Positions 2,797 to 38,592 of a stretch of DNA of 38,722 bases are shown one piece after another (positions within the stretch are counted from its first letter, which is position 1; each line of letters starts with the position of its first letter). The stretch spans positions 265,341 to 304,062 of the forward strand of contig KE561047.1 in the NCBI GenBank assembly GCA_000442015.1, read 5' to 3'. The notes beneath the pieces are model-generated. The model did no database searches and was not told where the DNA came from. It saw nothing but the letters and a program-made list of their open reading frames with translations. The stretch comes from Rozella allomycis CSF55 (lineage: Eukaryota). A program made the position numbers and the translations under genes.

Positions 2797-3317
2797 TATC
2801 CTTGCTGATATCCATCTTCTAGTTGGATTAACCAATCGTTGTCTCGTTTAAAGATGGATTATTTAACACTGGAATAAAGCTGACTTTCTCTTACTAAATA
2901 TATTTTTTTTCGTAAATTGAATACACCTGAATCATCTGGAATATAAATCTAGAGAATAAAAATAACCAAATCTTTATCTTTATTTTCATAATCATGATCA
3001 TTCCTCGCTACTTATATTTAGTAGCATCGATGGAAACTTTTATGGCTATGATCGATATTGAAGTGAATTTCTAAATCCTTAGAACACAGATATATATGAA
3101 CTTATTTAAATTGAAATTTGAAGAGACTACGAATAAATCAATTAAGTGATGCATCTAGAATAAGCTGTCCGTTTATTTGGACTTTTTAGAAATGTAATTC
3201 AATTGTGTTTCAAAGAGTAAGCACTAGTATTCAACACTTAATGCATGTGATTTATTTAAGTTTTCATCTTTGCCATAATGTTATTAAAACCAATTTTGGT
3301 CATGTGGCTAGGCCGAA

Positions 3318-5711
3318 ATGTTTCGATCAATTTTCAAAGTAATACCAACAAGACCACGTCATTCATTACCATTTCTTAAATTTTATTCCATTGGTGGTAA
3401 GATAAATATATTTTAATTGAAAGGATTTAAACTTCCTGGACAAGACCCATTTCCACCTGGCGAGGCACTAAAAAAGTTTGGAATTGACTTGACTGACTTG
3501 GCTAATAAAGGGAAACTGGACCCCGTCATTGGAAGAGAGGAAGAAATAAGAAGAACAATTCAAGTGTAATTACTTTCGCTCATTGGTAGAAATAGACTTT
3601 CTAGAAGGCAAAAGAACAATCCAGTTCTTATTGGTTATTGGAGTAGGAAAGACGGCTATTGCAGAAGTAAAAATAGTTTCAATTTAAAAAAGGGATTAGC
3701 AACACGTATAATTAATGGAGAGGTTCCTGATTCTATAAAGGGCAAGAAGGTTATAAGTTTGGATTTGGGAAGTTTGGTAGCTGGTGCAAAGTTTAGGGGT
3801 GATTTTGAAGATAGACTGAAAGCTCTTTTAAAAGATGTTCAATCAGAGAAGAATGTGATATTGTTTATTGACGAGATTCATATGCTTCTAGGTCTAGGTA
3901 AAGCTGAAGGTTCAATGGACGCATCTAATATGTTGAAGCCTCAACTAGCAAGAGGAGAGTTAAGATGTTGTGGGGCCACAACTTTAAATGAGTGGAAGCA
4001 GATTGAAAAAGATGCTGCCTTGGCCAGAAGATTTCAACCAATTTTGATCCAACCACCAACGGTCGAAGATACTGTTTCAATATTGAGAGGATTGAAAGAA
4101 AGATATGAAAATTTTCATGGGGTTAGAATCTCAGATGCAGCTTTAGTTTCTGCTGCCATAAATTCACAAAGGTATATTTCAGACAGATTTCTGCCTGATA
4201 AAGCAATTGATTTAATTGATGAAGCTGCTTCAAGATTAAGACTTCAACAAGAATCGAAACCAGAAGTATTGCAAGATTTGGATAATTCAATTTTAACGAT
4301 TCAGATTGAATTGGAATCTTTGAGAAAAGAAACTAATAAAGCTTCATTGGAAAGAAGAGAGAAATTAGAAAAGGATTTGGAACTAAAGAAGAAGGAATCT
4401 GAGAAATTGACATTATTATGGTTGGAAGAGAAACAAAAATTGGAAGAAATTAAATCATTGAAGGCTCAATTAGAAGTTGCTAGGAAAGAACTTGAAAATG
4501 CTCAAAGGTCTGGAAATTTAATGAGAGCTGGAGAACTTCGCTACAGTGTCATTCCAGAAATTGAAAAGAAACTTCCAAAAGAAAGGTAGATGAATTGAAT
4601 TGTATTTAATGTAGTGAAGACGAAGTTGAAGATGTTCATCTAGTGAGACAATACGTTACTAGCAATGACATAGCAGCTGTTATATCAAAAGCAACTGGGA
4701 TTCCAATCGCTTCAATGATGAAAGGGGAAAGAGAAAAACTTCTTGAATTGGAAAAGAGGCTTGAGACCAGGGTTGTTGGACAAGATGAAGCCATCAAAGC
4801 TGTTGCTGATGCTGTTAGACTTGGAAGAACTGGCTTTCATAATCCAAAGAGACCAATAGCTTCATTTTTGTTTTTGGGTCCAACTGGTGTTGGCAAGACT
4901 GAATTATGCAAAGCGCTGGCTCAATTCATGTTTGATTCTGAAAATGCAGTTACAAGAATTGATATGAGTGAATACATGGAGAAGTTTTCTTTTAGTAGAT
5001 TAATTGGTGCACCCCCTGGCTACGTTGGCTTTGAGGAGGGCGGTGAATTAACAAACGCTGTTAGAAGAAAGCCTTATTCGATTGTCCTTTTAGATGAATT
5101 TGAAAAGGCACATAGAGAAGTCGCCAATCTTTTGCTTCAGGTTCTTGATGATGGCCACTTGACTGATTCGCAAGGTCGCAAAGTTGATTTCAAAAATACA
5201 ATAATTATTATGACGTCAAACATTGGAGCTGATTTACTTGCTAATGAAGATGAAGGAATCAATTCGGAAACAAGAAAAGAAATCACACTCATGCTGCGTC
5301 ATCAATTTTCACCTGAATTTGTCAACAGAATCGATGAAGTGGTAATGTTTAATAAATTGTCAAAGCAAAACTTGCGTTCAATCGTTGATATCCGCTTAAA
5401 AGAAATGGAACACCTTTTATCAAGTCATCAATTGAAGATTAACGTTTCAGATGAAGCAAAAGCTTATCTAGCAGAAAAGGGTTACGATCCAGTTTTTGGA
5501 GCTCGTCCACTACAGAGAGTTTTACAAAGAGAAGTCATGTCTCCAGTAAGTTAATTCATATTCTTAAACAAAGCTCTCAAAAATGATGATTGATGGATCA
5601 ATTTCTGACAATGAAAGTGTAAACATTAACGTCCAAGAAAGCGAAAATAATCAAAAACATCTTCTAATTGAAAAAATTCCTAAACCTACTCAAATGGTTG
5701 AAAAGTCTTAA
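3318..5711 (+). CDS. HSP78: Mitochondrial ClpB-family disaggregase Hsp78; apparent frameshift in the NBD1 Walker A codons
   Basis: Basic presequence [16 protein letters not shown], no Clp N-domain, [68 protein letters not shown]. Introns 3397-3423, 3566-3595, 3667-3692, 4586-4614, 5546-5573. Frame break at about 3636-3639. Confidence 0.9.
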
Positions 5712-5758: not shown

Positions 5759-6779
5759 ATGCTTTCTCCTCCCAATTCTCGCCATTTATCCGATATTGTA
5801 AAAAGAGCCATTTTCAACAAGGAATTGGCAGAGTCCCTGACGTTTCATCTCGAAGTATAACAACAACTTTCTAATTAATCTAGAATGCTTCAAAAGAAGC
5901 TATCAACAAAATGGTTGAACACTTAATTTCAAGTTTATCTTTTCAAGAAGATCTTGTCAAAGCAACAGCATCTAAAACGGATCGTCTAGTGACTCTGCAA
6001 GTTTTATACGAGCTTTGTCAACTTAATTCGCCTTCAATCCTTGATATTTTACTGATTCCAGTCCCTATTTTAATCTGGATTTACCTAACATCTGAAGGAG
6101 AAAACGAACAAGCCGAATTGGAAACCACTATTCTCCAAATATTCAAAGCAATTCAAGAGTTCCCAACAGTATCTAAAGATTCCACAAAAATTCCTTTATT
6201 ATATCTACCAAACATATACAGTCAAGTAATTTTAAATTTCTCGAATGAAAGGGAATATACCCGGTCCAGAAATCAAACTATTTCATGGTTTACGATGAAG
6301 AGATTATTACCTACAATGCACAAGGAATACCTAACGATAATATAAACGACAGAAATTTGGGATTGATCTTGCATGTATTTATCAAGGAAATCGGCGATAG
6401 GATATCTCTTTACGCGCCAATAGTTCAACTTTGCACAACATACTTGATGTTCAAGTAAATTATAAATCAAATTTTGTCCAGAATTTTGGGAACCAGTATC
6501 AGAAATGTTCAAGAGCCTACTATACATTGCGATAATGAACTGCACAGCAGTATTATAAAGGAATTTGCAATCAGAAACGTCAATAACAAGAGATTTAGAC
6601 TGCATGCAAACCTCTTATTAGAAATGATCTCCCTAGTGGTTTATCTAAAACACAGGGAAGATGAAAATATCTCGTCTTTAGCATCGAAATGCTTCTCGTT
6701 AATTCATAGAAGGGCCAAATTAGATCTTATTCCTGAAGTGATGACCGCTGTAGAATCATACATTGCTAAGGAATTGTAA
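5759..6779 (+). CDS. Hyccin/FAM126-like protein (putative PI4KIII-alpha complex subunit)
   Basis: Spliced ORF (introns 5855-5883, 6226-6251, 6455-6481). Segments VPILIWIYL, IPLLYLPNIY and IHRRAKLDLIPEVMTAVES resemble, from memory, FAM126A LPELIWCYL, IPSLSKPSVY and IIYRAQLELYPEPLLVANA, in the same order. Confidence 0.6.
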
Positions 6780-14036: not shown

Positions 14037-17000
14037 TTATTCAGTTTGATTTAGGACCAAACAAACACCTTGCAAAACCCAATGACTGGAATGTTCAGAG
14101 GTAGCGATATCAGCTTCAAAAACGAGTCCGACGCCCATAGCATTTCTTCTCTGCGAGGTAGTATAAACGGGTGTTTTCAAAGTGTTCATGAGTTTCAGCT
14201 TGTGCGACTCGATAGGAATAATTCTCAGAATAGGCAGTTCACAGCTCATCGGGCCACCGGGAACCATTTTAGCCAGACAATTCTTTTCAGCATCCCAGGT
14301 AGCACCTTCCAGAAACAATCCACGGGCGTAGCATCCAAAATTGGGGCGTTCGGGAACCTGGTCAATGTCCTTGTACGTTGTGACCTGAGTGTACAGAGTA
14401 GAGCGGTCCAGTGGCCAACCGTTTTTGCGACATGTAGTTTGAACGAGAGCAGTTAGATAAGCCTCGGGGATGTGTAAGCCTGACAGCCACATGACCATTG
14501 GTTCACCTGATTTAGCCCAGGAGTTGTACTGCTGGTATCGTTTTTCAAAATGGACCATCCAATCGCCTAAATTTTTCAGAGTTTCTGGAGCCAGCTGTCT
14601 CCACATGAAGGGAAGTTGACCATTGTAGAGAGAATTTGCAAGATCGTCGAGAGATTGGGACATTCCGATTTCACCTTTGAGAGCTCTAGCCAATTCCTTT
14701 AAACTTGATTGCATGGTGTCTACAAGAGTGTTGAATCTTTCCAATTCTTGCAGGAGAACAATTTGTGTTGGCGAAGGAGTGCCAAATGTTTTGTATAGTC
14801 TAGCGATATCAAAGAGAGGAGGCAAGCGTGATTGAATATCCAAAGCGATAGAGTTTATGTAGTCTTCTCGGCTTGTTCCCAGAGCGGAAGAGTTTGTTCT
14901 TGGCTGTAGACTGATCAAGAATTGCCACATTTCTTTAACAGAGTTGGACAAGTACCCAATTTCAGCATTGGAGTGAAGACCGAATACTTCAGGTGAGTTG
15001 TTTAAAGGAAGAGATTCAATGTATTCAAGAAATGCATCCCTGGAGGTTGCTTTAGGAATTGAATAGTCGACCAAAGAATTTGAATAGAAATGAAAAGGTT
15101 GAAAAGAATCGAACAGAAAGTCACCCAAGTATTCGCCAAGATAAGTCATCAAAACTCTTCTATCGTAATCATCAGTGACTCTTCCACCATAAATAGTTTC
15201 GCCGATTAAATACTTGATGCTTTCCCATGGCACTTTAGATTCATTGTTTGTAATCATTTGATTTAGATAAGTTTTGAGAATATTTAAAGAGACTCTGAAA
15301 TCAGATTCATTGAAATCGTATTTAACATTCCAGCCAATTTTGCCATACTTGCTTCTCTCTTGAACAACAGCGTGAAAGAATGCTACAACAAAGACTAACG
15401 GTCTATAATAAGAATGTGCAGATTCAGAGAGCATATCATTTGTTAATCTATAATAATTAGATCTTAAATTCAATTTGAGACCATTTGGCGGTTCAGTGAC
15501 AACTTTGAGCGATCTTTGTAGGATGCCAATAGGAAAACTAGAAATAGGTTCAGTTGTAAGCCACAATCTAAAATCTTTGTGAGGCTTATCAATCTTATCT
15601 AAATATTTTTCCAAAGATTTCAACCAATTCAACAAGAGATGGCAATTCTGAAGCATAATCCATTGGCCTCTAAGAATAGCGGTTTCTAACAATTGCATAG
15701 CTACTGGCGCTTGGCCCTGACCAAGAGAAACAAATTTCAATCTGTTTCCAGCGAATCCTACAGCTTCAGCTAGTTTAGTCAAGTCAGCAGCTGGATCAGC
15801 ACCAGGACTCAGAATAAAAACAACAGGAATAAATGGCGTTGTTTGGTCCCAAATATTTTGATAGTTTATTACTGGCGGTGTGACATACTTTTCACCAAGC
15901 GTATTAATAACAAATCTTGTCATTGCGTTGAATACTCTATCTACTCTGAAACATCTCAATAAACACAATTTCTGAAATTCCGTTAATTCTTTATCAAATG
16001 GAATTTGTTCAACTTCAGTTAATTCAGATTCAGCCCATTGCTTCCATTTAGCTTCATTGTTGGAAATTGAATCAATAATAAACTTGAAAGTGTCATTCAA
16101 AGAAGAAAGTCTATTCAAATCTTTCCATCCTTGCGCTGTAATCCAATTAAATGGTTTATCTTTGGGATTCTCAATTGAAACATTTCCTATCAATTACCCA
16201 AATCTATTTTAAATACCCTTGTAGAAAAAGTCTAGTTCATTTGAATCAATTAAACCATCGCCATCCAGCAACTTTACAGTCATTTGAAACGAAAACATTA
16301 ATTTATGCTTCTCAAACAATCCAGTGCACACATAATTATAAACATTAATCTTCAACGTTTCGATTATTTTATTCAATCGCTTAGCTAGAACAGGATCAGG
16401 TCTACTTTTAGCCAGCGACATGTGGAACACTTCAAGAAACGCATTTAGTGAATATTCATACATTGGATTAATCGCTGGCAGTTCACTCAAAACAAAAAAC
16501 AAAATAGCTCCACCTAAACTAAAATTTAATACATTTGATTACATTTAGCAACTGGTCTATATGCATCACGAGAAGCTTCAACTTCCAACGACGTCTGATT
16601 CGCCAATATCAACTTTTGTGCAATTTCATTAGCTTTTGATTTAGTTTCTTCCAACGTTTTAATCAATTCAATGTTATCCAACATCAATCCAGTTGAAGAC
16701 GCCAATTCCCTCAACAATGTATTTTCCAATTCCTCCAACAATGATTTATTCTTGCTCATTTCCAACACTAATTTCTCTCGCTGCTCCTCCAACTCTTTTC
16801 TTTCATGGCCAACAACAACATTCAGCAATTGATCCTGCAACCCTTTCAAAGTCACACTGTAATTAATAATCATCGCAGAACCAAACAGTTTAGGCGAGAA
16901 TGATGGATTAGATAGCTTTGTCGTCAAGTACAATCTAAAATTCGGATCATAGTCTACTTCCTTGTCACCCAACACTATAAACTTTCTTGACCCCTGAACT

Positions 17001-20000
17001 TTGATATTCTTTTCCAAAACATTATCAATTACAGGGTCAATGTACTCATCAACATCTTCAAACAGAAACGGCAACCCATAAGTGATCGCCAACTCTAATT
17101 GTTTAAGAAAATCATGATCATTAAATGAAGACACTTTTAAATTGTTGTTCATTTCTCTCTTTTTAATCCAATGCAACGCCTGCTGCTGTGGATCAATACA
17201 AATTGGAAATCTAGATGCTTTGGTTGTCAATATCCCATTCTGAATAGACAATTCATCCTGTGGCAATGACTCTGATGCCCATCTACTAATCTCAACATCT
17301 GTAGTCTGAAATTTCTCAATTTTAAAATCATTTGACAGGGGTATATTTCTATTCTTTAAATCATTAAACCATTTGTTATAAACCAACTCAGTCCTAAATT
17401 CCCAATTAAATGCACCAGTGTAGCTCATAAACGCAGCGAGTAACAAACAATTCCCAACCAGCTCAATTTTCTGTGATTTCAAATAATCCAAATCTTTTGA
17501 CCATCTAATCCTCTCAGATTCCAGTCCAGAGATCAACTTATCAGCCGCAGCCAATCTTCTCTCCATTAACGCAGCCATTTCCTTCAATTCAACTTGCTCA
17601 GATTTAGCTTTTTGGAACTGATCTTGCAACTGTTTCAATTCATTATTAAGCTTTTGCAACTCTCTAGTAATATCATTATATTCTTGCAAACTTTCAGCCA
17701 AATTCTTTTCCAACGTAGCTACAGCTTGTCTTTTAGGTGCAATCAACTTTGCCACATTGCAATAGCCAACCACTGCTAGAACAAATTTCAATAATCCTGC
17801 CCCAGCAACTGATATTTCCTTCATTCTTTCCAGCGTTATTTCTGTTTCTCTTAGAACATTTTTAACATTCTTTATTTGCTCAGTGGAAATGGAATCAACA
17901 TCCATCGTCATCAAACTAGTCTTAAAATCACCTATTGTAAAAGATTAACATTGAATACCAGCAGCCATCATTCCTTTGGCACTCTTCCACGATACATCCT
18001 TTATATTCTTCAAAATACAAATACATTCACAAACCTTTTCACAATTAAATAAATTTTATACTTTTTGAACTTCTTTTGGTGGTTTAGCAAACGATCTAAT
18101 TTCTGTAATTTCAGAACTACTTAGATTTTGTAGAGCCAATTTAGCTTCTTCTAGAGCAGGCAATGCTTCAGCTAGAGCAACTTCAGCTTCTTCTTTATCT
18201 TTAGCTATTTGTAAATTTTGTGCATTCAATTCTCCCTCTTTTCTTGTAGCCAATTCTTTCTTTTCTTCAGCTACTGCTGTATTTGTTGTAATAATTTCCA
18301 ATAGTTTGTTACAAGCTTCAGTTTTGTTCCTTACAGCGATATTCTGTTCAGCCAATTTTTCATTCAAATCATCCAACTGCCTGCTACTCTCTTCCAACTT
18401 GTCTAGACCAGATTCTAATCTTGTACACAACTGCAAATTTTCTTGTCTTTTTTCTTTTAATAGTTTAAAGAAATTGTTAATGTAATCTAGATAATTCTTT
18501 GGTGTCATGAAACAAGATCGTTTGTATTTAATGTAGAAATCTTGTCCTGCTGTGCCTGCTGATTGATGAACAAATACCATGTGGCCAACTATTTCCTTTT
18601 TGTATTCTTTTGGTATCATTTCATCTGTCAACACTGACAAGAATGCTTCTGCTACTGAAAACAGAGCTTGCTGGGGCCACGGTGGAAACCAATTAATAAC
18701 AGTATTATTAACCAAACCTTTTATTAAATAAAACAATTAATTTACCTAGATTAATTAAAGTCTTTAATCTTTACCTGGAAAGTTTCTACATCGAGTTCTT
18801 AATAAATCACCATTAGGCGACATACACAACACAATATGCAGATTCTCGGCACATTTATTAATAAAATAATTCCAAATTTTCTCTTTTGATTGAATATTAA
18901 ATTTAGCAGCTTCATCTCTAATCCCCGAAATAATCCCATCCTTTTCATCATCAGCAAACAATGCTGGAACATACCCACTAGTTAGAATATTATTAATAGA
19001 CTCTAAAAACCCTTCCTGAATAATCTGCGCATCAGTCAGCATGAAGACCAACTTTTTGTTATCCAGTCCAATCATCTTATAAACTTCTTTTAAATTCTCT
19101 TTGAATTCTACTTCACCATAACCTCTGCTCAGTGTTATTTCATAGATTGAATAGCCAGCTGTAAATGAAGCCAATTTTGTTAATGACTGTTTACCACTTC
19201 CAGCTACACCAACCAACAATCCATGACCCCTGTTCATTCTAATGATTCTATGGATTCGTATTAAATGTTCCAATGCATCATCAAACAAGACTAAATTCAT
19301 TGGTTTATTCTTTATATTGTATTCTTCTATTATTTCCTGTATAATAAACTTGACAGCAGTGAAATCCAGTAAATCTTCATACAACCTTGCATTCTCTTCC
19401 TGAATCGCATGTCTGAAATCTCCAAATAAGATTGGATCTTTTGTGGCATAATCAAATTCACTTTCAAATAATTCTAAAATGATTTTATTGATTTGATCAG
19501 AAACTAATTTCTTATCTTGATCTGATATCAACCTATCATGAAATATCCTCAATGATTCATTCCTCCACAATCTAATTATTCTCTCATTTGAATCAAAATG
19601 ATCAGGCGTTGAATTACACAACCCTTGAAACACTCTTGAAATATCTCTCATATTAAACAAATAATGAAATTTGCTGGGCGTTGGTGGCAATTTATTCTGT
19701 ACAATTGAATAAAGCTTTAATGTTGCTGAAACGAGATTATTCACATTGCTAAATATTTCTTGCTTGAATACTCCAAAGTGACCATTCAAAATTGATGTGA
19801 ATATTTTCTGTAATGATAAATCTTTTGGAAATGAAATGTTAAAGATATTAAATAAACTCATAAATCTTGAATCTACTTGTGATCTACCCCCTCCAGGTGG
19901 TCCCATCGCTGCTAGGAATTGAACATCCTTTAAATATTTCCAATTCAATTCTTTTCCTCTATCATACAATCCTCCCTTTTCTATCAATAACTTTAACAAT

Positions 20001-23000
20001 GCAATTGGTTGTTGAGTTCCATAAATATCTTTCTGTGGCATATTCAAATCATCCACAAACACTATCAATCTTTTACCTGGATTATAAGTGTAAATCATTT
20101 ATACCTAATATTAAATTAATGAATCTTTCGTACCTGCTGTTGGGCCATAAGTATCCTTTGTTCTCTTTTCAACATTAGCTTCCAAATTCACTTGAACATC
20201 CATCGAACTAGTTCTACTGCTAAAATTCATATTCAACAAAATATTCTTTTCATCAGACAAATTTCTCAAATAATGCTGCACAGTAACAGTTTTGCAACAT
20301 CCAACACCCCCAATAAACAATGCCGGCTTTTTATTAGAAACTGTCTTTTCTAACAACCAACAATGTCTCATAACATCCATCGTGGGCACTAGTATCTCAT
20401 GCCACTTTAGACTCCTGTCATGCTTGTATTCTGGTACATAGGTATTCCAACTCTGCCATTTACATTCATTCACATCAAAATGGTAATCATAAATAGTTCT
20501 ATCACCACCTGGTAACTCACCAACTGTTATTGGTTGCGCCAATGTAGTAATTAGAGTCATTTCAGACAGTTTCTTTATAACATTATCAAATCTCTCCCTA
20601 TCTTGTTCAATCAACACTCCACCAATAGACCACACAATACACTCTATGAATACAGCTTCAATCATTTCTGGTGTGAAATTAACATTCACATTCAGAACAC
20701 TCTCCAATAAATTACACAGTTGGAATATGTAGTTGCATGTTGATACATTCACTATTGTTTTAGGTGGTTTGCCTACAAACCCTTCAAACACTCCCTCTGT
20801 TATAAATTCAATAGCCATTGGAACATATTTAACAAAATATTTAGATAATATTTCTCCTTCTGTTTTGTTTCCCCTTTGATTAATCCATTTCTGAAAGTAT
20901 GGTTTATAGCCTAAATTCTTTGGATCCATATAAACCTTTTTGAGAAGTAAGATAAACAATTACCTATGTTAACATTTCAATCATTTCATTACCTATGTTA
21001 ACACTTCAATCATTTCATTACCATTCCACATCTACTAATCGTTGCAGGCGAGGCATACTGCAAATCACCAACCTCAAACAACAACGAAACATGCTTCTGC
21101 AATCTAATTCTCTCTCCATTTGGCAACGTCAATATCTTATTATCATCCATCACTGAATTCATATTCTCCACCCAAACAGCATCAACATCCCCATCAAACA
21201 AGATATACTTTCTTTCCTGTATCGAATATTTAAATAATGATTACCTTTTTATCTGTTGGCTTGTTGCATTCTCTAAATATATTCGACAACAATCCATCAG
21301 TCCAGTCACGCGTATTTGGATCCAGTATGCCATACAATTCATGCACTGACACAGCCTTGGCATTCAATGTATACAACTTTGTTGCTAGCCCTAGTTTCGA
21401 TTGTGCTTTGGCCAACGTCTCAATCACTACACTCTTACCACCCTGTGTTGGCCCAACAACCTCATTATAACACACAAACATTCATACCATTGTTGTATGT
21501 CTAGTCATCATTGTCTCATACAATTGAATAACCTTGTCAACCTGCTCTGGCACAATTATATAGTCTCCCTCTCTCAAACACTCTTCAACCGCATCATTAA
21601 AACTGGGATACCGGACTCTTGGACAATCTAACCCTGGAAACAGATCAGAGATCAATCCAAGAAACAATGGAACATCGTCAAATATAAATTTAGGCAGATT
21701 CATATCTCTTAACGCTCTCATTAAAACAACATCTTCGTTTAAATCAGGTGAAGATCTTTTCAACTGGCCAGCCATCACAAGAACACTCTTCAAAGCTCTT
21801 AAACCGAAATCGTAGTGATGTTGTCGTGATAATTGTCCTTTTGCTAGTTTGTACAATACAACCATCTTTTTCGCTAGTAATTTGGCCATTGTAAAACCTT
21901 CAGAAAATAACATTATTTCACAAATCAATTCCAAGTCAGGCACAACCATAACAACAGGTCTGAACAAGGCTTTCAAATTATCTGGCAATTCAGTTCTCCC
22001 AGCATACCCAGGATTCTATTAAAGTTTCAAACCTCTATTTACCATTGTAATGTGAAGAGTAACTTTCTTATCAAGAGCAATTTCATTCCCTTCAAACTGA
22101 AACCTCTTCAATCCAAGAGACAGAGCATTTTGAATAGTTTTAACCTGCGCTTGAATAACAGACAAGACAGCCAATTCAATTCTATTAAATTCATCAAAAC
22201 AACCCCAAGCACCCGTTTGACAAAGACCAGAAAATATTTTTCCCATTGCTTTAAAGTCTAATCCTTCACCACAGTTAGTAACAATACACAAACAGCCCAT
22301 CGCTTTGGCTAAATCTTTAACAGTCTCTGTCTTTCCTGTTCCAGCAGGACCTAAAGTTTAGATTTAAAATGTGAATTACCAGCAGGAGAACCACCAAGTT
22401 TTAGAGAGATTGCCAGAGTTAAAGTCAAGTAGCATCTATCGGTTAAAGGAGTGATGACTAGTCTTCCATTTAAACCCATGTACTCATGACCATAATCAAA
22501 TACTCCATTGCATTGCTTAACAAGGATATCATCAATATTTTTATCCCAATAGAATCTCAGTTGACTTGACCATTGAAAGTCTTGTGAATCAATAACACTG
22601 TCTCTAACAAATTTGTCAATAATGTCTCTAGCATGAACATCAACAATAATCTGCGTATTAATTTTCCTTCTATCATTTGAATTCAAATCTGATCGCACTT
22701 GCACGACTAGGTCTTCCAATTGAGATTGTAACAATTTGCTGTATTTCTTCATTGCCAATTTATCGCCACTTTTTATTTTATCAAATGAATCTTCAACACC
22801 AAACGTCCACCACACTTGAGACCCAGCTAAGCCAACCATTCCTTGGTATTTGTACAACCAATCTTTTCTATCCATTGTGACATAATAATAAATAGCTTCT
22901 TTATGAATTAATCTATTCGTTCTTTTCATTTCATTTTGAACGCTTGTCATCCATTCTTCAACTCTACCAACAGCTGGCACTGGCTGCACAAACTCTAACA

Positions 23001-26000
23001 CTTCGCCTTCAGTTGATTGCATTCCAACAACATTCTTTTCATTCCTACCAGTTCCAAACTGCAACTTTAAAACATTATCAAACATCTTTATTATATGTTC
23101 TTGAATACTTTTTGGATCATGACTACCAAGAATACTCAACAATTCATCATCACTAATGAAAAAGAATCTTGGGAATGCATTTCTCTTGGATTCTAAATAA
23201 TCACTTAAACTCTTTTGACAACTTTCTAATTGTTCTGATAACTCTTGCAACACTTGCAGTCTATTATCTGAATTACATGCATCCAACACATTGTTATTCT
23301 TTGCAGTGTCACTCATTATCTTTTTAAATGATTTATCAATCTTGTCAAACTTTAATGCTTCTTCAGGTAATCTATTTAATACAAAATAACATTGTTACTG
23401 TTGTCTGATGTCTCCACTTCCAATGAAAATACTTTCCAAGTACATCCACTTTCTTTGCACAACCATCCAAACATCTGTAACTTCTCCAATATGTGACAAA
23501 ATCTTTTCCCATTTCTGAACAATTGGCAAAAATGGAATCGCAAACTTTGATGCACTCATACTCTGCAAATTCATCGCATTATCATCCAACAGTGTTATAA
23601 TCTCATCTATTGCCCCCAGAATAAACCCTCTATCATCATTCCCTTTAATAACATTCAATTAACACTCTTACCTTTGGTATATTTAACAAGTGTAAATTTA
23701 ATATTCTTCCAAGTAACTTCAACTTCCTTTAGTCCATTCTCAATACTCAACTCTTTATTAGCAGCACCCACAATCTCTCCAATACTCTCTGAATGTTCAT
23801 GCAAATTCATACTAAACAATTTCTCAAGCGTAAATGTTTCAGGATTCATATCAAACTGTTTACCTCTTCAACAAAAACAATTCAAATTACCTGTAATCTC
23901 CATCAACTTTTTCCAATGTCTTTCTCTCAATGCTTCATTCTTCAAATCAGAGTACAATGGAATAGAATCCTTAAAAGAATTAATGTTCGCTGCAACAATA
24001 TTAAATGGTCCCATTTGTTTAATCTCTTTTGGCAACTTTTTCAATCTCAACACAAATGTTTCAATCGTTTTATTCATTGATGAAATATCAATCAACGACC
24101 ACAAAGACTTGCTCCATCCCATAACAGCCTTTTTCACATCATTATAAAGCTCATAAATGCCACTCAACAAAATCATCTCATTTTCCAAATCATACAAATC
24201 AGAAAACGTTGAAACATCCAAATTAAACAACTTTTCGGCTGAAACTAGATTCTCCCTTCTTTGTTGAAACTTTACAATCATTTCTTTCGCTGTACTCAAC
24301 TGCGTAGTTCCCAAATCTAAATCCTTGTCTTGCATCCTCGGCCCATGCTTTATAAAATCATCCAAAAATGTTTTAATCTCCATTTTCAATTCATTCACTT
24401 GTCTTATCGTCGCTTCAGTAAACTTTTTCTTAATTGGTATCAACGATCGATCCAGCCCCTTGGCTTTCTCTGTCACTTCATTCCATCCCTCAACCAGTCC
24501 ATTAGCTCTTTCCACTTGATCTTCTTCAACTTTGATATCATAGATAATCAACGTTCTATAACTCTCAATAATGTCTCTATATTTAATCTCCATTTCTTCT
24601 CCAATCTCCCTCACTTGGCTAATCACACTCAATATAAACGTCAGCTGCTCCAACGTCTCTGGAGTCTTTGACAACTCTTCATGAAACTTTGCATACTTAT
24701 CCTCCATGGCATTCAAATCTTGCAACACTGAATCGTTCAACAATTTCCCTATAGATGCGATCCACGATTGCGCCTCATTATATATTGCTGATTGCAAGGG
24801 TGAACTAATCACTTTGATAAAATCAATCTTTTTAAATGTTATCTGCGTTTCAACATCCTTTGCCAACTTGAAATAAAACACCAACTTTTCATCATAAGAA
24901 ATAAACGACGGCTTCTTTTGAGCAAACTTTTCCAAAGTGATTGTCTTGTCCACTTTCCACAATGGCCGGTATCTCCTCCATGAATCCAAATACTTTACAA
25001 GCCCATTAAACGTTCTAGTCAGCGCCTGATTAATCTGAACCATTATTGCAACTATATTAGCATTGGCCACAACATCCGAATAATAACTAAAAATAAATGG
25101 CTCCTCTTCATCAACTATCTTTTGTGGTGGTGTCAAGATACAAGTGCCATTCTGCCATCTAACAAACTTTTTCGTAGCTTCAACAACTGATCTAACAAAT
25201 TTTATAGTCATCTTTTGAATATCAATCATATTAGGCGACAAAACAATCTCTGGGGCACTTAAACTGGCACTCACTTTAAACAAGGGTTCATGTCTCATCT
25301 TCAACTTCTTCTTCACAACAACACTCCCTGCCTTTTTCATCAACGTTAAACTAAACATTGACGCCAATTGATACAAACTTGTTATCACCATTTGATTCAA
25401 CGCTACAAATATCTTCTTCTCCCAATGTGCATAATAATTTCTCAGCTGCGGTGATCTCCCCGTATTAGTGTTCGCTACCATGCTCTCCATTTTAATCATC
25501 AACGGGGTTATACTCGTATACTTTTGCACCAACCCATCAACAATCACATTCTTACTCTTATTCATACTCTCAAAAAATTCCTATTCATCAAACATCAAAT
25601 ATCTTACTTGCGCATCCATTAATTCTTCATCTTTCAATGATGGCTCCTTCAATAATGTAGCCTTGGCTATTGAATCAACGGCATGCGCTATATTCGTAGC
25701 ATTCTTATGCACTTGGTTAACCAACGCAGCAAACTTGCTGATTTCTTGATTTGCCCGCTGCAAAAAGTCTGTAATGCCAAGTGAATTCCAATTTAATCTA
25801 GTCAACCCTGGCTTTAACACTCTTTTCAACCCCTGGATCTGTTCAACAAGCAGCTTCTTTTCTGCCGAATCCAACATGTTCAATTGCTCATTATAACTTT
25901 TCAACATCATAGAAAGTTGCTCAACATACGAATGATACTTTTCTTCTTGCAGTGCTATATTCAAAGCTGACGATGGAATAGTGAAGTTCATTCTATCTAA

Positions 26001-28349
26001 ATACTTTGCTTCTCTCACAATATCCTTCAATTCCGGTTTATAATTCACAACAAATATTTCTTCTTTGCTTCCATCAACTGCCTCTTTGGCTAATATAAAC
26101 GCCTTCAAATATCCCAGCGAATTGCTCTCCACGTGATCACACCACTGTCTATAAAGTTGATCTTCATATTCCTTCATAGATTTAGCCACAGTCAAATACT
26201 TAGCAGTCACTTGCTTTCCCATATCAGAATCCAACATTTCTATCTAATTCAAATCATTAAAAAATACCTTTCATAGATTGGAATCGCAATATAGTCTTTT
26301 TGATCCTCTGAAACAATGATCTTGACCATGATATACTTCCAGCAATCTTGGGCTCATTCTTGTTCACTGGTGGATCATCCCTGCGTGATTATGAAAATTC
26401 ATAAATTACTTTGACTTTACAAATATTTCATTAATTATATCAATCTCTTTGCTATACTGCTCCAAAATATCATTAAACTTTTGCAACAGTTGCTTGTTGA
26501 TTGATTCGCGTGATTTAATATTTTTAATGTTCAATAACAAATCAAAGGCACCTTCAGCCGAACGAAGCTTTTTAAATGATGCATCAATAAATTGTTTAGC
26601 CATGTCTTCAATCTGCAAAATTTGTTCTCTAAACTTTGTCATCACAATATCCCATTGCGGTTGATGCTTTTTGTTAAACAAATCAAATGTTATTGATTCA
26701 ATTGGTATTATCAATCCTTCAATTCTCTTAATCACTTCATCAATCTGCTGTGGGTCACCTGTAACCGCCTTCAACTCTGGTCCAAATATACTATAAAATT
26801 GTTCCATAACTTCCACAACCTCAAACAAATCAGCACATCTTTGGGTCATATAATTGGTTTGCTCAAACAACTTTCTTCTATCAAATTCCCATCTTTGATC
26901 TCTTCCAGATTGCTCAATTTTATCTCTAACTTCAAAATACGTTCTACTCCATGCTTCCAATAAATTCTTTGCATCACTTATTGTTTTCTTGGCCTTTTTG
27001 GTTGGCTCCCTTAAAATTTCACGAACATTCACTATCCCCATAACTTTATTGGATATTTCCCACGCAATTCTCACCATCAATGGGACCATCCTTTCATCTC
27101 GGTTGTAATGACGTGACAAAATCCAAACCATCTTGATTGCATTCATAAGAGATGGCAAGGAATCCTTTCTTTAATTTTGGATGTTTAAATTACCTGCACT
27201 CCCTGCAATGAACCTGTAATAATAGATTTAAAATGTCTCTCCAAAGTACCCAAGAATTTTGTATTATCTCGTGCTTCAGTATACAACTTTTGTAATTCAG
27301 CAAGCTGTGTAGTCAAAGGACCGTGATGGACTGTCTCTGCTTGTTGCACAATATGAATAATAGACTTTGCAACAGGCAAGCTTAATTGCTCATATAACGT
27401 CGATAAGTTGCCATTTCTTTCCCTCCAGTAGTCAATTTCTGCTATTGGACCCTATTTATTATTAAAAAATCTTTTACATGTCCCTGTGGAACCTTCTTTG
27501 TTTCCTTGTCCAGAATACTGGCAATGATCTTAACCCATTCGTCTGCAACTTTATCCAACTCTTCCAATTTAGCGTTATCTTTTAATATAGCATCCTGATG
27601 ACTAATATCAATGTTTGGTATTCTTATTCGAACATCTCCAGCTACTTGCTGCACAGTATGCCCGATTTGAGTTGCAAACTTATTCAAAGCTTTAGTCAAT
27701 AAAAAATTTAATAATTACTAAGGCGAACTTCGTTTCGAAAATTATCATGTTCCCCGGTTCCAATATTGTTCAACATGGGCAAATACACTTCATTGATCAT
27801 TTGTTCCAAGGTCACAAGTAACTGTCCGTTCATAGAACCAATGTCAAATTCTCCAGGTAAAATATTGTTGGCATCTATTGAAAACACGGTGACATTTGTT
27901 ACCTTCCATGTTGGCAGGGACAGGTATAGGCACACCGTCTCTTGCAATACGAACAAAATACATTGACAAACACTCAGAAATGATCTTTGGAAACTTTTTA
28001 GCACATACACGCAATTTCTATATTTAACACCCATGCTATTTACTCCAGAATCAATGTAGAACAAAACAGCATTTACATTATTGCGTCCCTCTAAAAAGTC
28101 ATACAGAAGCCATGAACTTTCAAAGTTTTTTTCTTTAAGCATCTCATCAAATAAAGCAAAACATTTTTCTTTATCTTCAGCATAAAATAATGGTGAAACT
28201 CGCAATTTTTCTTTTATCCAATGATGCCTCATGTCGGCGCTAGGTGGCACTCCAGAAAGTGCTTCATTAGCATTTCCAGGAGTTTCATGTTTTAAAATTC
28301 CAGCGTCTGGCGGAGGCTCAGTGGTAATTGGGCGTTCAATATCAGCCAT
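14037..28349 (-). CDS. DNAH10: Axonemal inner-arm dynein f/I1 1-alpha heavy chain (DNAH10 type)
   Basis: Tail, linker, AAA1 ([16 protein letters not shown]...[10 protein letters not shown]), AAA2 ([10 protein letters not shown]), AAA3, AAA4 ([10 protein letters not shown]), stalk, AAA5-6 and C-terminus [10 protein letters not shown]. 22 interruptions: 28018-43, 27875-902, 27690-718, 27452-77, 27165-93, 26381-409, 26240-67, 25581-607, 23864-90, 23643-71, 23372-98, 22351-79, 22016-42, 21461-87, 21217-44, 20936-21021, 20077-133, 18718-74, 18035-61, 17932-58, 16514-42, 16187-216. Confidence 0.93.
18718..18774 (-). other. Composite 57-nt intron: two abutting GT-AG mini-introns (29+28 nt)
   Basis: CCAG|gtaaagattaaagactttaattaatctag|gtaaattaattgttttatttaataaaag|GTTTG; removing both units restores NFPGLVNNT. 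Confidence 0.8.
20077..20133 (-). other. Composite 57-nt intron: two abutting GT-AG mini-introns (29+28 nt)
   Basis: GCAG|gtacgaaagattcattaatttaatattag|gtataaatgatttacacttataatccag|GTAAA; removing both units restores [15 protein letters not shown]. Confidence 0.8.
20936..21021 (-). other. Composite 86-nt intron: three abutting GT-AG mini-introns (29+29+28 nt)
   Basis: ATG|gtaatgaaatgattgaagtgttaacatag|gtaatgaaatgattgaaatgttaacatag|gtaattgtttatcttacttctcaaaaag|GTT; removal restores SRCGMVYMDP. The first two units are 28/29 identical. Confidence 0.8.
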
Positions 28350-28459
28350 TACTTTGTTTTGACAAGGGTCTCATCTTAATTAAACACCAAATAATTTATC
28401 GATACAATGTTTTATTAACTTTATTATCAATTATATTGCTTTCAAAGACAATTGAACGT

Positions 28460-30092: not shown

Positions 30093-32686
30093 TTATTGCC
30101 AAAGTTGTTTGACCCATTGAATGCCTTCATCTGCCTTCACGGAAACAGCATTTATTTCGGTTTGTGTTCTTTTGGAACGCCAAAGATGATTCCATAGACT
30201 AAGCCAATTGCATAGCTGTGTCGACGTGGTAAATTCTTCTTGTAGAAAACCACCTACATTGGAATTCATTATCTTATTATAGAACGCTTTATCTTGAAGA
30301 AGTTTAAATAGCAAATTTGCGACGATTCCAGGACTATTAGGAGGTACCAAGAATCCATTCTTTTGGTCGACAACTTGCCAAGGGATGCCTCCAATTTTAG
30401 TAGTTATCTAATTGAATTTTGTAATAAATTCTACTATAGGAATTTTTTTCATTATGGCTTCCGAAACCTTTATTTCAAAACCCTCGCGAATTGATAATTG
30501 AAGAGCAGCAAAAGCACCTCGTAATATAGTGTTTAAAAGCTGGTCCGATGGAGGTAATCTCGCTATAATTATATCGTGTCTGTATTTAAATAAAGTCGTA
30601 TCATTTTGAATCATGTTAAGGGCTTGCTCATAAACCAAAGATCCATCTTTTAGGGCGAACTAGAATCTTTACCTGGATCGTCAATTGATCCATGACCACA
30701 TACCACCAATTGAGGTTCATGACCGTTTTTGGCGTCAATGTGGTCGCTATCCAACATGCTCCTTAATATTTTGTATGAATTAATAACATCAGGAATTCCT
30801 AAGAAACTGAATAACATAAAGGAACTATACCTTTGGAAGGGTCGAATCGACTTATTTGGACTATGTNCTTAATATTTTGTATGCATTAATAACATCAGGA
30901 ATTCCTAAGAAACTGAATAACTTAAAGGAACTATACCTTTGGAAGGGTCGAATCGACTTATTTGGACTATGTATGGTCTTGAAATGTCCAACTTCGGCAT
31001 ATTCTGCTCACCGCAAATTCTCCTAAACATGTGAAGATAGTACTCAATGTCCCTATTTGATAGAGTCTTATTTAATCCATCCAAAGGATCAGTTCTACGC
31101 ACCATAAATTAAGAATTTACGTTGCAGGCATAAAATATACCTTAGATTTGTCAATTTCAGATGGCACAAATGAATTGACGGGGTGACTAATAAAAGCGTC
31201 ACATTTCTCGATCTTGCCTTTGAACAAATAATCCCAGACATCTTTTTGTGATGAATTTAACGATAACAAGTCTGTTCGAATCTCAATGTGCGAACGATAA
31301 ATCAAAACGCATTCCGAGTTAACTTCCTTTATAAAAGGAATTAGTCCCACGACTTTACAGATCGAAGAACATTCTTACCTTGTGGATCGTCAAGAACTAT
31401 TATGTCTGCAAGTTTGAAAACACTTGACTGCCAATACCTTTCAGCGTTAAATCTAGACCATTTCTCATACAGATCTTTTTCATCAATTGTCAAACGTTCA
31501 GTGCTAACACCTGTAGTTGACAACATAAATTTAGTCCTTACCCTGTAACACATTATGTATTTTTCTTTTTGTGACCTGAAAAACAGCAGGATTAGGTCTA
31601 ACGACGTACCATTGAATATTCAATTGGAACAATTTGCTTAGCCGAATTAAGGCGTGTCGCATCAATGCGACACCACCTCCTTGAGGGGTGGAGCTAATGA
31701 ACGATACATATATATTTGGTTTTAGATTTGAAAAAATAGATACTTGTTTTAGCAAATTCTTCCATAAATACTCTGAACAAATTTTCTCATAATCATGTAG
31801 GTTAACTAAGCGAATGGCATTACAATCTACTTCAACTCTGTTTTTAAATCCGATAGAAAGTCTTGGAATGGAGACGTTAGGTCCGAAGAGTCCAATAGCT
31901 TTGCGAACAGCCGAATCTGCTCGTTCATCCGTTGTAACACCTACATTTATAATAATATAAATTTAAATACCAGATGTATCAAATTCACATGGAAGTATGT
32001 CTAGTTCTAGCCACAGCCTAGACATGAATGATTGCAAGACGTCTATTTTAATTTTGGCGCCAGACGGTGTTGAAATTGTCGTTGTAAAACAGTTTTTACA
32101 TACACTCACTGCAATAATCTTATTTTTCTTTTCTTTCTGATATTTAATCAACCAGTTAAGTAAGTAATTTTCTAATTGAAAACCTAGATTAGACATTATT
32201 CCTTTACGTTACTGATTTTATCTAACGTTTTTCTTACAATTGAGTCATCATTAGCCAAAAATGCGTGAGAATGATGTAAAGTGTCATTCCACGATATTTG
32301 GTATTCAGGTTCCCACGAAACACCTCTGATCATTGGACTGCTTGAGCCTGAAAGAGAACAACTGTCTCCGCACTTTATTTTTCTCATATCATCTGTTTCC
32401 ATATTGAAATATATTTTTTCGCAAAGTGTTTCCAAAATGTAACTCCCATCGTGTATTGCAACACAAAAACGACCAATCCAATGATTCTGACATAGTTCAT
32501 AACCGGATTTCTCGTAAGAATCATTGCATGAGATGTCTTGGTTTCCGTGATTTGTAAATAAATTATTTTTTGAACATCTATTTCCACATGAACAAAACGC
32601 TACTTATCTGGCTCGATTTCCACCTCAATGCCTACAAATACTGACGGGAAAAGGCATGGTGCTTCAAATTGCTTCGTTTTTGACAT
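30093..32686 (-). CDS. Fungal-type trehalose synthase/trehalose phosphorylase (GT4, CCG-9-like)
   Basis: IHDGSY, RLWLELDILP, DERADSAVRKA..FGP, SSTPQGGGVALMRHALIR, DDPQ, RSHIEIR, TDPLDGLNK, QISRFDPSKGIPDV, GHGSIDDPDG, LQLSIREGFEIKVSEA. Nine introns of 26-32 nt; the assembly is interrupted by the duplication at 30762-30972. Confidence 0.88.
30762..30972. repeat. 105-bp direct duplication flanking a single N (probable unmerged contig overlap)
   Basis: 30762-30866 and 30868-30972 are identical except for two substitutions; N at 30867. Confidence 0.9.
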
Positions 32687-36688: not shown

Positions 36689-37087
36689 ATGGACAATAAC
36701 ACATCTGAATTACATCTAAACAAAGAGGACGAAGTCTATTTATGGGGCTCAACGACCACACTTACAATGGAACGGAATCATTTGTTCACTAATTATATAG
36801 CTCATCAGCCTAGTAATAATAGCGTTGTGACTAATACTACCGTTCCTTTTGATAACTCAAAAAATAGAATGAATACTTATAGTTGCTTCCCTGAGGCAGA
36901 AATCTTGAATCATGAATTATCTAAAGACATTGCTTCATTAGGATTTTTATTGTCGGCAGTACTTTCCATTGTGATATGCTCCATTCTGATATTTTCAACG
37001 CATTCCTTTTTACCGAAATGGCACCACATGGCAAGAAACGGAAAAATTGTCAGAATAGATGATTTTAATAAAATATTTGGAGTATGA
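36689..37087 (+). CDS. Hypothetical single-pass membrane protein
   Basis: 132-aa ATG ORF with an N/T/S-rich N-terminus and one strong hydrophobic helix (IASLGFLLSAVLSIVICSILIF). Confidence 0.5.
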   Translation: MDNNTSELHLNKEDEVYLWGSTTTLTMERNHLFTNYIAHQPSNNSVVTNTTVPFDNSKNRMNTYSCFPEAEILNHELSKDIASLGFLLSAVLSIVICSILIFSTHSFLPKWHHMARNGKIVRIDDFNKIFGV

Positions 37088-37117
37088 ATGTTTTCAAACA
37101 TTACTGTGGCGAAGTTG

Positions 37118-38592
37118 ATGAGCATAACCAAACTAAAGAGAGAAGAAATTTTTGAACTAATTATAAGGTATTTATTTGAAGTAGACAACAAAGTCAAATT
37201 CAATATTTTGGTATGAATGCACTGGCTGCTTCAGTGGCCTCTGCCTGCCAGATTCCATTGAGCACAGTGGAAACATCAAATAAGCTACATGACTATATTT
37301 TATTGGGAATGAGATCTGAGGCTTCTGGCGGTAATAAGATTTGGCTATGTGAAATTAGCGACCGATAATAATACTACTGTCGTCGTGGAATCGAAAAATG
37401 ATGATTCACAAAGTGACGCAGATGAAGAAGACTTAATTCCGGGTTATAAAATGCGCCTAGAATTTCAAAATGATGTGAAGTATGAAACAAAACATGCACC
37501 AAATTACAATACTTGGTATATCACTACGCATAAAGAAGCAGCTCGATGTGCTGCATTTAGTCCTGATGGTATTAGGCATTCATTATTACTTATCAAAGGC
37601 CGATTTATCGCTACTGGGTCCGAAGATACCTCATTGAAGATTTTGGACGTCACTAAAATGAATTTGAGAAGTGACGCTGAAGATAAACCAGTTATTAGGA
37701 CCCTTTACGATCACCTTCAAGTAATGTTTTTACAACTTTGATATAGCCCGTTACCGAAGTAGCATTTCATCCTAACAATTTGATGCTCGCATCCTGCGCA
37801 TTGGACAACAATATAAAGCTGTACGACTTAACTAAAGTGGGTGTTAAAAAAGCTTTCAGATACCTATTGGATTCTCATCCATTTCGTTCTATTTCCTTTC
37901 ATCCATCCGGTGACTTTCTTTTGGCGGGGACAGAGGACGATAGAGTGAGAATGTATGATATTAAAACTATTACTTCATTTGTTCCATTGGATTCCTCTAG
38001 AAACCATAAAGGACCCATTACTTCAGTAAACATTGATTTGAATGAATATAAAGGTTAGGTTTGGGCCAAATGGTCGACTCTTTGTTACCTCAGGAGAAGA
38101 TGGCTCCATTAGAATTTGGGATGGCGTCAACATGAGATGTGAAAGAGTTATCGAGGGTGCTCATAATGGACACGAAGTAAATTTATTTTTTTTCCGGTTT
38201 TCAAAGGTTTGTTCCGTGAGAATTTCAAAGAATGGAAAGTATTTGCTTTCTAGTGGAAAAGACTCTGAGCCCAAGCTTTGGGATTTGGGGTCCGGAAAAG
38301 TTATTCAAAAATATATCGGAGCAACTCAAAATGTAACATTTTTCAATATCTTTTAAAGAATTTCCCTATTCAAGTGGCGTTTGACTATGCGGAGGATTTT
38401 GTTCTAGGAGGAGATGAACCCTCCAGCTCAATTTTCGTTTGGGATACCAAAACTGGGGAAGTTGTAAAAAAGCTATCAGGGCACAATAGCGTCGCATCGT
38501 ATATTGCTTCTTCCCCGGTTGAGGGTTGCTTTATCTCATGCAGTGAAGATCATCGTGCAAGATATTGGAAAATTGGTGATCTTGAAGCGTAG
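37118..38592 (+). CDS. CSTF1: Cleavage stimulation factor 50-kDa subunit (WD40)
   Basis: N-terminal REEIFELIISQ dimerisation motif, YITTHKEAARCAAFSPDG, PVIRTLYDH, SISFHPSGDFLLAGT, FISCSEDHRARYW. Introns 37168-93, 37331-58, 37569-98, 37721-46, 38026-53, 38177-206, 38333-58. An alternative in-frame ATG lies at 37088. Confidence 0.88.

Follow-up and report, generated by a model that had tools for sequence, protein, structure and literature searches.

Three long introns of a DNAH10-like dynein gene divide into abutting mini-intron units: candidates for stepwise splicing at the scale of single introns

The DNA studied here is a stretch of 38,722 nucleotides (nt) of contig KE561047.1 from Rozella allomycis CSF55 (positions 265,341 to 304,062, forward strand), called the window below. 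It is gene dense, with 31 to 39% G+C, and all three standard stop codons are in use, since long frames are closed by TAA, TAG, and TGA alike. On its minus strand lies a gene for a DNAH10-like axonemal dynein heavy chain, three introns of which divide without remainder into units of 28 or 29 nt that resemble the ordinary, very short introns found elsewhere in the window.

Intron sites in this gene were found by joining neighboring open frames through GT...AG introns. Taking out 20 such sites leaves a single frame of 4552 codons containing no stop. The exons match the Pfam entries DHC_N2, AAA_7, AAA_8, AAA lid (dynein lids), Dynein_heavy, and Dynein_C, and among named proteins the best matches are to dynein heavy chain 10, at 54 to 67% identity. 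With this full set of motor domains and these matches, the predicted product is of the dynein heavy chain 10 kind (axonemal, inner-arm I1 type); the assignment was made by Pfam domains and best named matches, and DNAH10 is used here as a putative orthology label. G far exceeds C on the coding strand, the GC skew on the plus strand being -0.25 to -0.36 between 16000 and 28000. Seventeen of the 20 sites are single GTA...AG introns of 26 to 30 nt (1, 7, 2, 6, and 1 introns of 26, 27, 28, 29, and 30 nt, respectively). The remaining three are the consecutive introns 14, 15, and 16, of 86, 57, and 57 nt. The gene, the three composite sites, and their seven units are as follows.

14040..28370 (about), minus strand: DNAH10-like axonemal dynein heavy chain gene with 20 intron sites and a 4552-codon spliced frame, identified by Pfam and named matches.
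20936..21021, minus strand: composite site 1 (intron 14 of 20), 86 nt = 29 + 29 + 28, phase 0, between the CGM and VYMD codons.
20993..21021, minus strand: site 1 unit 1, 29 nt, GTA...TAG; intron-model score 13.6, within the single-intron range; 28 of 29 bases identical to unit 2.
20964..20992, minus strand: site 1 unit 2, 29 nt, tandem duplicate of unit 1 with one mismatch.
20936..20963, minus strand: site 1 unit 3, 28 nt, GTA...AAG; intron-model score 13.8; sequence unrelated to units 1 and 2.
20077..20133, minus strand: composite site 2 (intron 15), 57 nt = 29 + 28, phase 1, splitting the Gly codon (G/GT) in YGPTAG/KRL.
20105..20133, minus strand: site 2 unit 1, 29 nt, GTACG...TTAG; intron-model score 10.8.
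20077..20104, minus strand: site 2 unit 2, 28 nt, GTATA...CCAG; intron-model score 9.5, the lowest of the seven units and above all 202 exonic decoys (maximum, 7.4).
18718..18774, minus strand: composite site 3 (intron 16), 57 nt = 29 + 28, phase 1, splitting the Gly codon (G/GT) in NFPG/LVN.
18746..18774, minus strand: site 3 unit 1, 29 nt, GTAAAG...CTAG; intron-model score 13.2.
18718..18745, minus strand: site 3 unit 2, 28 nt, GTAAAT...AAAG; intron-model score 17.3.

Read on the minus strand, with slashes at splice boundaries, site 1 is ATG/GTAATGAAATGATTGAAGTGTTAACATAG/GTAATGAAATGATTGAAATGTTAACATAG/GTAATTGTTTATCTTACTTCTCAAAAAG/GTT, site 2 is CAG/GTACG...TTAG/GTATA...CCAG/GTA, and site 3 is CAG/GTAAAG...CTAG/GTAAAT...AAAG/GTT. 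All four internal junctions read TAG/GTA, with zero exon bases between units, and the flanks are G/GT at all three sites, the upstream exon ending in G and the downstream exon starting with GT. A preliminary description of this DNA had placed longer introns of 57, 57, and 86 nt at 18718-18774, 20077-20133, and 20936-21021 and had divided them exactly into 28- to 29-nt GTA...AG units with TAG/GTA joins and G/GT flanks; we recovered the same three sites, and every one of these features is borne out on the minus strand. It had further claimed that conserved dynein motifs are restored only when all units are removed. Indeed, the spliced protein aligned with nine homologues is ungapped at 26 of 26 covered junctions (26 rather than 27, because homologue P0009 stops short of site 3), with the motifs SRCGM/VYMD, YGPTAG/KRL, and NFPG/LVN running across sites 1, 2, and 3, while all 13 combinations of partial removal reach a stop 4 to 20 codons past the junction. 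The exon after site 2 (20076-20040, minus strand) starts with GTAAAAG, in itself a good match to a 5' splice site, but the first AGs after it stand 7 and 15 nt downstream; with no AG at a distance of 26 to 33 nt, an extra unit is not formed.

For comparison, we assembled a catalogue of 56 single introns from 12 genes on both strands, hand-picked from scans that join open reading frames (ORFs). All 56 begin with GTA, and they measure 26 to 31 nt (13, 15, 9, 13, 4, and 2 introns of 26, 27, 28, 29, 30, and 31 nt, respectively; mean, 27.75 nt). Three single introns found later, of 33 nt (37082-37114) and 26 nt (37168-37193) in a WD-repeat gene and of 32 nt (30936-30905) in a glycosyltransferase gene, were kept outside the statistics of the 56. 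Together they agree with the range of 26 to 33 nt reported for single introns in the preliminary description. No resolved join requires a one-piece intron of more than 33 nt, among about 59 single sites and some 62 intron sites overall. In genes of low conservation, two joins are ambiguous: 5871 to 5884 is bridged either by 29 nt through another upstream frame or by 42 nt, and 3339 to 3417 has no settled solution. The only intervening sequences longer than 33 nt are the three dynein sites, and all three are exact sums of modal intron lengths. The window thus shows the pattern of tiny-intron genomes, a narrow unimodal length distribution below about 35 nt. The longest single intron, on the plus strand at 37082-37114, reads GTATGAATG...GCGAAG and is less A+T rich than the others, and a 53-nt exon separates it from the 26-nt intron downstream.

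We simulated 400,000 sequences per length with an order-1 model of single-intron interiors, keeping the GTA and AG ends fixed. Only 0.21% of the simulated 57-mers and 0.0005% of the 86-mers could be divided fully into GTA...AG units of 26 to 31 nt. When both strands of the window were scanned for AG/GTA centers with a GTA and an AG at unit distance, seven were found, compared to a mean of 2.0 and a maximum of 5 in 200 Markov shuffles. Four of the seven are A+T rich (A+T, 0.74 to 0.84), and these are exactly the four array junctions; the other three have an A+T content of 0.58 to 0.65, and their upstream half looks exonic when the sequence is read by eye. The composite arrays are therefore a real, nonrandom feature of the window.

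The units were then scored with an intron model built from 8 positions at the start, 10 at the end, and the composition of the interior and trained on the 56 singles against an exon background. The seven units scored 9.5 to 17.3, compared to 6.7 to 17.7 for the singles themselves (leave-one-out) and at most 7.4 for 202 exonic GT...AG stretches of 26 to 31 nt. No branch-site motif discriminated individual units: TTAA, TGAA, and TTGA are frequent near the 3' ends but occur elsewhere in the introns too. Folding gave no hairpin that would bring the outer splice sites together, with z-scores of -1.96, +1.03, and -0.23 for sites 1, 2, and 3, respectively; at site 1, a duplicated palindromic GTTAAC accounts for the weak fold. 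Scans of the window for Rfam families and tRNAs returned no matches.

Two regularities of the arrays deserve a probability, although both were noticed post hoc. Three arrays in consecutive introns of one gene have a chance of about 0.016 within the gene and about 0.001 over the intron sites of the window; the latter value was computed with 61 sites, a hand value of 37/32509 for 59 sites being of the same order, and the final count is about 62. The three older junctions all join a 29-nt unit to a 28-nt unit, which has a chance of about 0.002 given the length distribution of the single introns. The consecutive clustering and the repeated 29-then-28 order could both be caused by one event that converted a tract of the gene or by some constraint.

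The origin of one unit can be read directly. Tandem Repeats Finder reports a period of 29 with 2.2 copies and 97% matches at 20959-21022, and units 1 and 2 of site 1 reach a pair score of 22, compared to a maximum of 10 in a background of 1540 intron pairs. These two units are a tandem duplicate, and a whole intron has therefore been duplicated in place. By sequence comparison, recognizable copies are confined to this pair, and the other three junctions are at background similarity: the pair scores are -4 for site 1 units 2 and 3, 0 for site 2, and 3 for site 3, values reached by 83%, 39%, and 11% of the 1540 background pairs. Those three pairs would be either old duplicates that have drifted or units of another origin. 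We also considered a common origin of the three 57-nt arrays, but the case is unconvincing, since 5 to 17% of random pairs reach their pair scores of 12 to 15 (background, 7.2 ± 4.4). Likewise, a search for copies of the units among the other introns of the window gave best uncorrected background fractions of 0.002 to 0.06 over 56 comparisons each, which is not significant.

Tandem duplication of a whole intron thus gave rise to at least one unit, at site 1. Under a tight length constraint, few mutations that lengthen an intron are harmless; such a duplication is among them, because each copy brings its own splice sites, and the older pairs may likewise have begun as duplications. The interiors of the older units bear no trace of common descent, yet their five junction bases and their lengths are perfect, which suggests that use of the internal sites has preserved them.

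The closest database proteins share 70 to 76% identity with the dynein (P0009, 76%; P0124 and P0127, about 70%), and the protein searches returned no dynein above 76%. The open frame of P0009 runs through the positions of introns 12 to 15, sites 1 and 2 among them, and those of P0124 and P0127 through site 3 (intron 16); together they cover dynein codons of about 2059 to 3212 (window positions of about 21900 to 18170). These frames cross the positions of introns 12 to 16 and end where the present gene has no intron, and intron positions therefore differ between the lineages. If the frames are plain ORF calls, the nearest relatives appear to be intronless at the three sites. A metagenome scan yielded 80 loci, all of them distant dyneins with at most 41% identity over full matches (two short partial matches reached 49 to 57%), and an ORF-chain intron scan of these 80 loci gave only noise, with no tiny-intron locus among them.

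The reading that we favor, and hold to be fairly probable, is that the 57- and 86-nt sequences are arrays of autonomous mini-introns that are excised one unit at a time. Each 28- to 29-nt unit would be a complete mini-intron of the genome's ordinary type, and the longer sequences would consist of two or three of these placed end to end, with zero exon bases at the joins. Under intron definition, pairing would be between the nearest good 5' site, branch region, and AG, and each unit would bring all three at the spacing that is preferred. From the branch region and 3' site of one unit to the 5' site of its neighbor is no more than about 15 nt. By steric reasoning rather than computation, two spliceosomes should hardly fit on one array at once, and the units should therefore go successively. 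A unit ends in AG, the next base is the G of GTA or GT, and the upstream exon ends in G; each excision would therefore recreate a G/GTA or AG/GT context. Because the context is recreated every time, a series of ordinary splicing reactions could clear an array, whichever unit goes first. Formally, this would be recursive splicing through zero-nucleotide exons at the scale of standard introns, and we infer that the internal splice sites are maintained by selection.

The preliminary description had gone further and proposed stepwise removal by a spliceosome limited in length. What stands of this are the unit lengths, ends, and composition, the absence of a resolved one-piece intron above 33 nt, and the exact TAG/GTA at three diverged junctions; on this footing the stepwise route is probable, whereas the hard limit is conjectural. 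In its strongest form, the idea would be that intron recognition in this lineage acts like a ruler whose hard upper limit is near 33 nt, that longer sequences are tolerated only as chains of mini-introns, and that whole-intron duplication is a regular, nearly neutral source of them. We regard this form as possible but doubtful. If it were true, the genome should show secondary length peaks near 55 to 58 and 83 to 87 nt made up entirely of divisible introns, and whole-intron duplication would be a route to chains and ultimately to new intron material.

Several points weigh against stepwise removal and selection on the internal sites. The arrays are known here from DNA sequence, a search of sequencing runs having listed nine DNA sources and no RNA source for the region, and the duplicated pair at site 1 is taken from the assembly sequence alone. 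The sample is one 38.7-kb window with three sites in one gene, and the intron catalogue with which they were compared is hand-curated, all of its picks starting with GTA. The branch-site region of these introns is too A+T rich and degenerate for branch points to be discriminated unit by unit. If the units were recent insertions, their intact internal signals would need no selection. Furthermore, to our knowledge, spliceosomes elsewhere in eukaryotes have lower rather than upper length limits, and removal of 57 nt in one step is mechanically possible.

This leads to the strongest alternative, namely, that the three sites are ordinary introns of 57 and 86 nt removed in one step. The outer 5' site would then pair with the branch site and AG of the last unit, and the internal TAG/GTA would be relics of duplication or insertion, or sites seldom used. 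The final mRNA would be identical by both routes, nothing in the sequence forbids the outer pairing, and units 1 and 2 of site 1 are young duplicates whose junction needs no selection. There is also a precedent, in that a complex intron of Lipomyces starkeyi is removed in one reaction or in two. Nevertheless, not one of the roughly 59 single sites resolves to a one-piece intron beyond 33 nt, and chance divisibility is only about 0.2% per site. The three older junctions, moreover, retain exact signals and modal lengths even though the unit sequences have drifted to background similarity, and under intron definition the nearest strong sites should prevail, every unit scoring as a strong intron. 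On balance, we consider removal in one step rather unlikely.

A regulatory device is considerably less probable still. It presupposes stepwise splicing and holds that slow or incomplete removal leaves stop-containing intermediates that are degraded, so that dynein output is throttled or timed. The stops within 4 to 20 codons in every partial product fit this idea, as do the position of the sites in consecutive introns 14 to 16 of one gene, with the post hoc chances given above, and a UPF1 gene in the same window, which makes nonsense-mediated decay probably available. That gene, however, tells no more than that a decay machinery is probably present. Retention of any single intron here also yields a premature stop, and such stops are therefore not specific to the composite sites; the clustering fits a single mutational event equally well, and in the closest relatives available the three positions seem to be intronless. 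Thus, of the preliminary proposal that partial products are frameshifted or stop-containing and throttle dynein expression, the stops are found, whereas the throttle rests on a property common to any retained intron.

An assembly artefact, in which the organism's DNA would lack either the additional 29-nt copy of site 1 or the arrays in general, is hardly credible: a 106-nt tandem duplicate (98% matches) around a single N at 30867 resembles an unmerged scaffold join and therefore implies that the assembly can carry false tandem copies, and units 1 and 2 of site 1 differ by one base much as the copies at the N differ by two, but site 1 contains no N, DNA runs from a second sample contain 95% of the sampled words of 17000-26000 (a region-wide rather than site-specific figure), sites 2 and 3 and the junction of site 1 units 2 and 3 join unrelated sequences, which cannot arise from a duplicated overlap, and were the extra copy false, site 1 would be 29 + 28 like sites 2 and 3, and the finding would stand.

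Some other features of the window are worth recording. The 106-nt duplicate spans 30762-30972 in a glycosyltransferase/trehalose-synthase-like gene on the minus strand; its copies have two mismatches, lie around the sole N of the window, and look like an unmerged scaffold join or two alleles in tandem, with a 32-nt intron in each copy. The UPF1 gene occupies 1-2848 on the plus strand and has zinc-binding, 1B, and helicase domains and four introns of 26 to 29 nt. In a ClpB/Hsp104-type gene on the plus strand, a frame shift lies at 3596-3666 between ...NNPVLIG and GVGKTAIAE, in the Walker A region of its first ATPase domain. At this position stands the direct repeat TTATTGG TTATTGG, with a unit of 7 nt. 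No intron accounts for the shift; it may be due to an indel error or be a true frameshift, or the gene may be a pseudogene.

The proteins also bear on the host. Among named matches, the dynein is closest to those of chytrid-type fungi, and MVD shares 43 to 47% identity with proteins of fungi and vertebrates. Judged by the similarity of its proteins, the organism would fall near zoosporic fungi and animals. The window contains a two-domain ClpB/Hsp104-type gene, a type not known from animals, which speaks against an animal host.

The narrow band of intron lengths in tiny-intron genomes may reflect mutation and selection on accuracy or, alternatively, a mechanical limit of intron definition. Abutting introns of standard length are a natural test of these views: removal unit by unit, with the internal AG/GT needed, would point to a mechanical upper limit, and removal in one step would not. 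In addition, site 1 is a case in which tandem duplication of a whole intron has done no harm. Such a duplication is a simple way to gain both additional intron material and recursive sites, and it has so far been discussed mostly for exons. There is also a practical consequence, as gene finders trained on introns of 26 to 33 nt will split genes at such arrays unless chains are allowed.

To place the arrays among known systems, we compared them with recursive splicing, stwintrons, intron gain by tandem duplication, and tiny-intron genomes. The closest parallel is recursion through zero-nucleotide exons. In Cryptococcus neoformans BOT1, an annotated 375-nt intron consists of 210 and 165 nt around a zero-nucleotide exon, and in Schizosaccharomyces pombe SPNCRNA.445 a 336-nt intron has an internal zero-length exon; 196 zero-nucleotide-exon ratchet points are reported in Drosophila, and the process is documented in mammals too. 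The view that AG/GT recursion belongs only to very long animal introns, taken in the preliminary description, is out of date in light of the two fungal cases, which also offer a precedent for stepwise removal of the dynein arrays. As in all of these, a 3' site stands directly against a 5' site inside the intervening sequence, and splicing to the internal site would leave a functional site for the next reaction. In the dynein arrays, AG and GT are juxtaposed without an exon base at 4 of 4 junctions, and the sequence is such that a splice site would be regenerated in either order. The host introns are unusually long for their genome and are subdivided, at two to three times the modal length, yet they measure only 57 to 86 nt in absolute terms. 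Herein lies the difference: the known recursive cases extend from hundreds of nucleotides to many kilobases, whereas the dynein pieces of 28 to 29 nt are of standard intron length rather than parts of a long intron. Furthermore, they are found at three introns in a row in a single gene; one of these introns has three units, and one unit is a visible tandem copy. The known cases are based on junctions, lariats, or spliceosome profiling, while the evidence for the dynein arrays is so far genomic.

Fungal stwintrons and the complex introns of Lipomyces are similar in that they are removed by consecutive standard U2 reactions, the smallest intron first, which in the dynein arrays is only proposed. 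In Lipomyces, the sites chosen first delimit the shortest internal intron that is possible. The present host, probably fungus-like by protein similarity, resembles stwintron hosts as well, and small tandem duplications of splice elements have been proposed as the origin of stwintrons. However, a stwintron has its external intron broken at the donor, branch, or acceptor by the internal one, which makes the order obligatory, whereas the dynein units abut, their signals are intact, and either order would do. The arrays are therefore not stwintrons, because no splice signal is interrupted and each unit has its GTA start and AG end beforehand; this is in keeping with the preliminary statement that stwintrons are nested rather than abutting.

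Intron gain by tandem genomic duplication of an AGGT-containing segment (PMC4974935, PMC3443670) offers a parallel for units 1 and 2 of site 1, where a repeat likewise provides a second pair of splice sites. The classical model copies an exon and creates a new intron, while at site 1 a whole intron is copied and the mRNA is unchanged. Tiny-intron genomes, among them those of Paramecium (about 25 nt), Stentor (15 nt), Nyctotherus, nucleomorphs, and myxozoans, share with the window a very narrow length distribution near the lower limit. The window, for its part, uses standard stops and encodes proteins closest to fungal and animal ones.

In the literature searched, including recent short-intron papers (subscription journals and supplements being outside its scope), we found no description of abutting or recursively spliced mini-introns, in line with the preliminary statement that an array at this scale was not known to be described. 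Overall, the architecture is of a known kind, that of recursion through zero-nucleotide exons, and what is new is its scale, the visible duplication of a whole intron, and the bearing that it would have on an upper limit of intron length.

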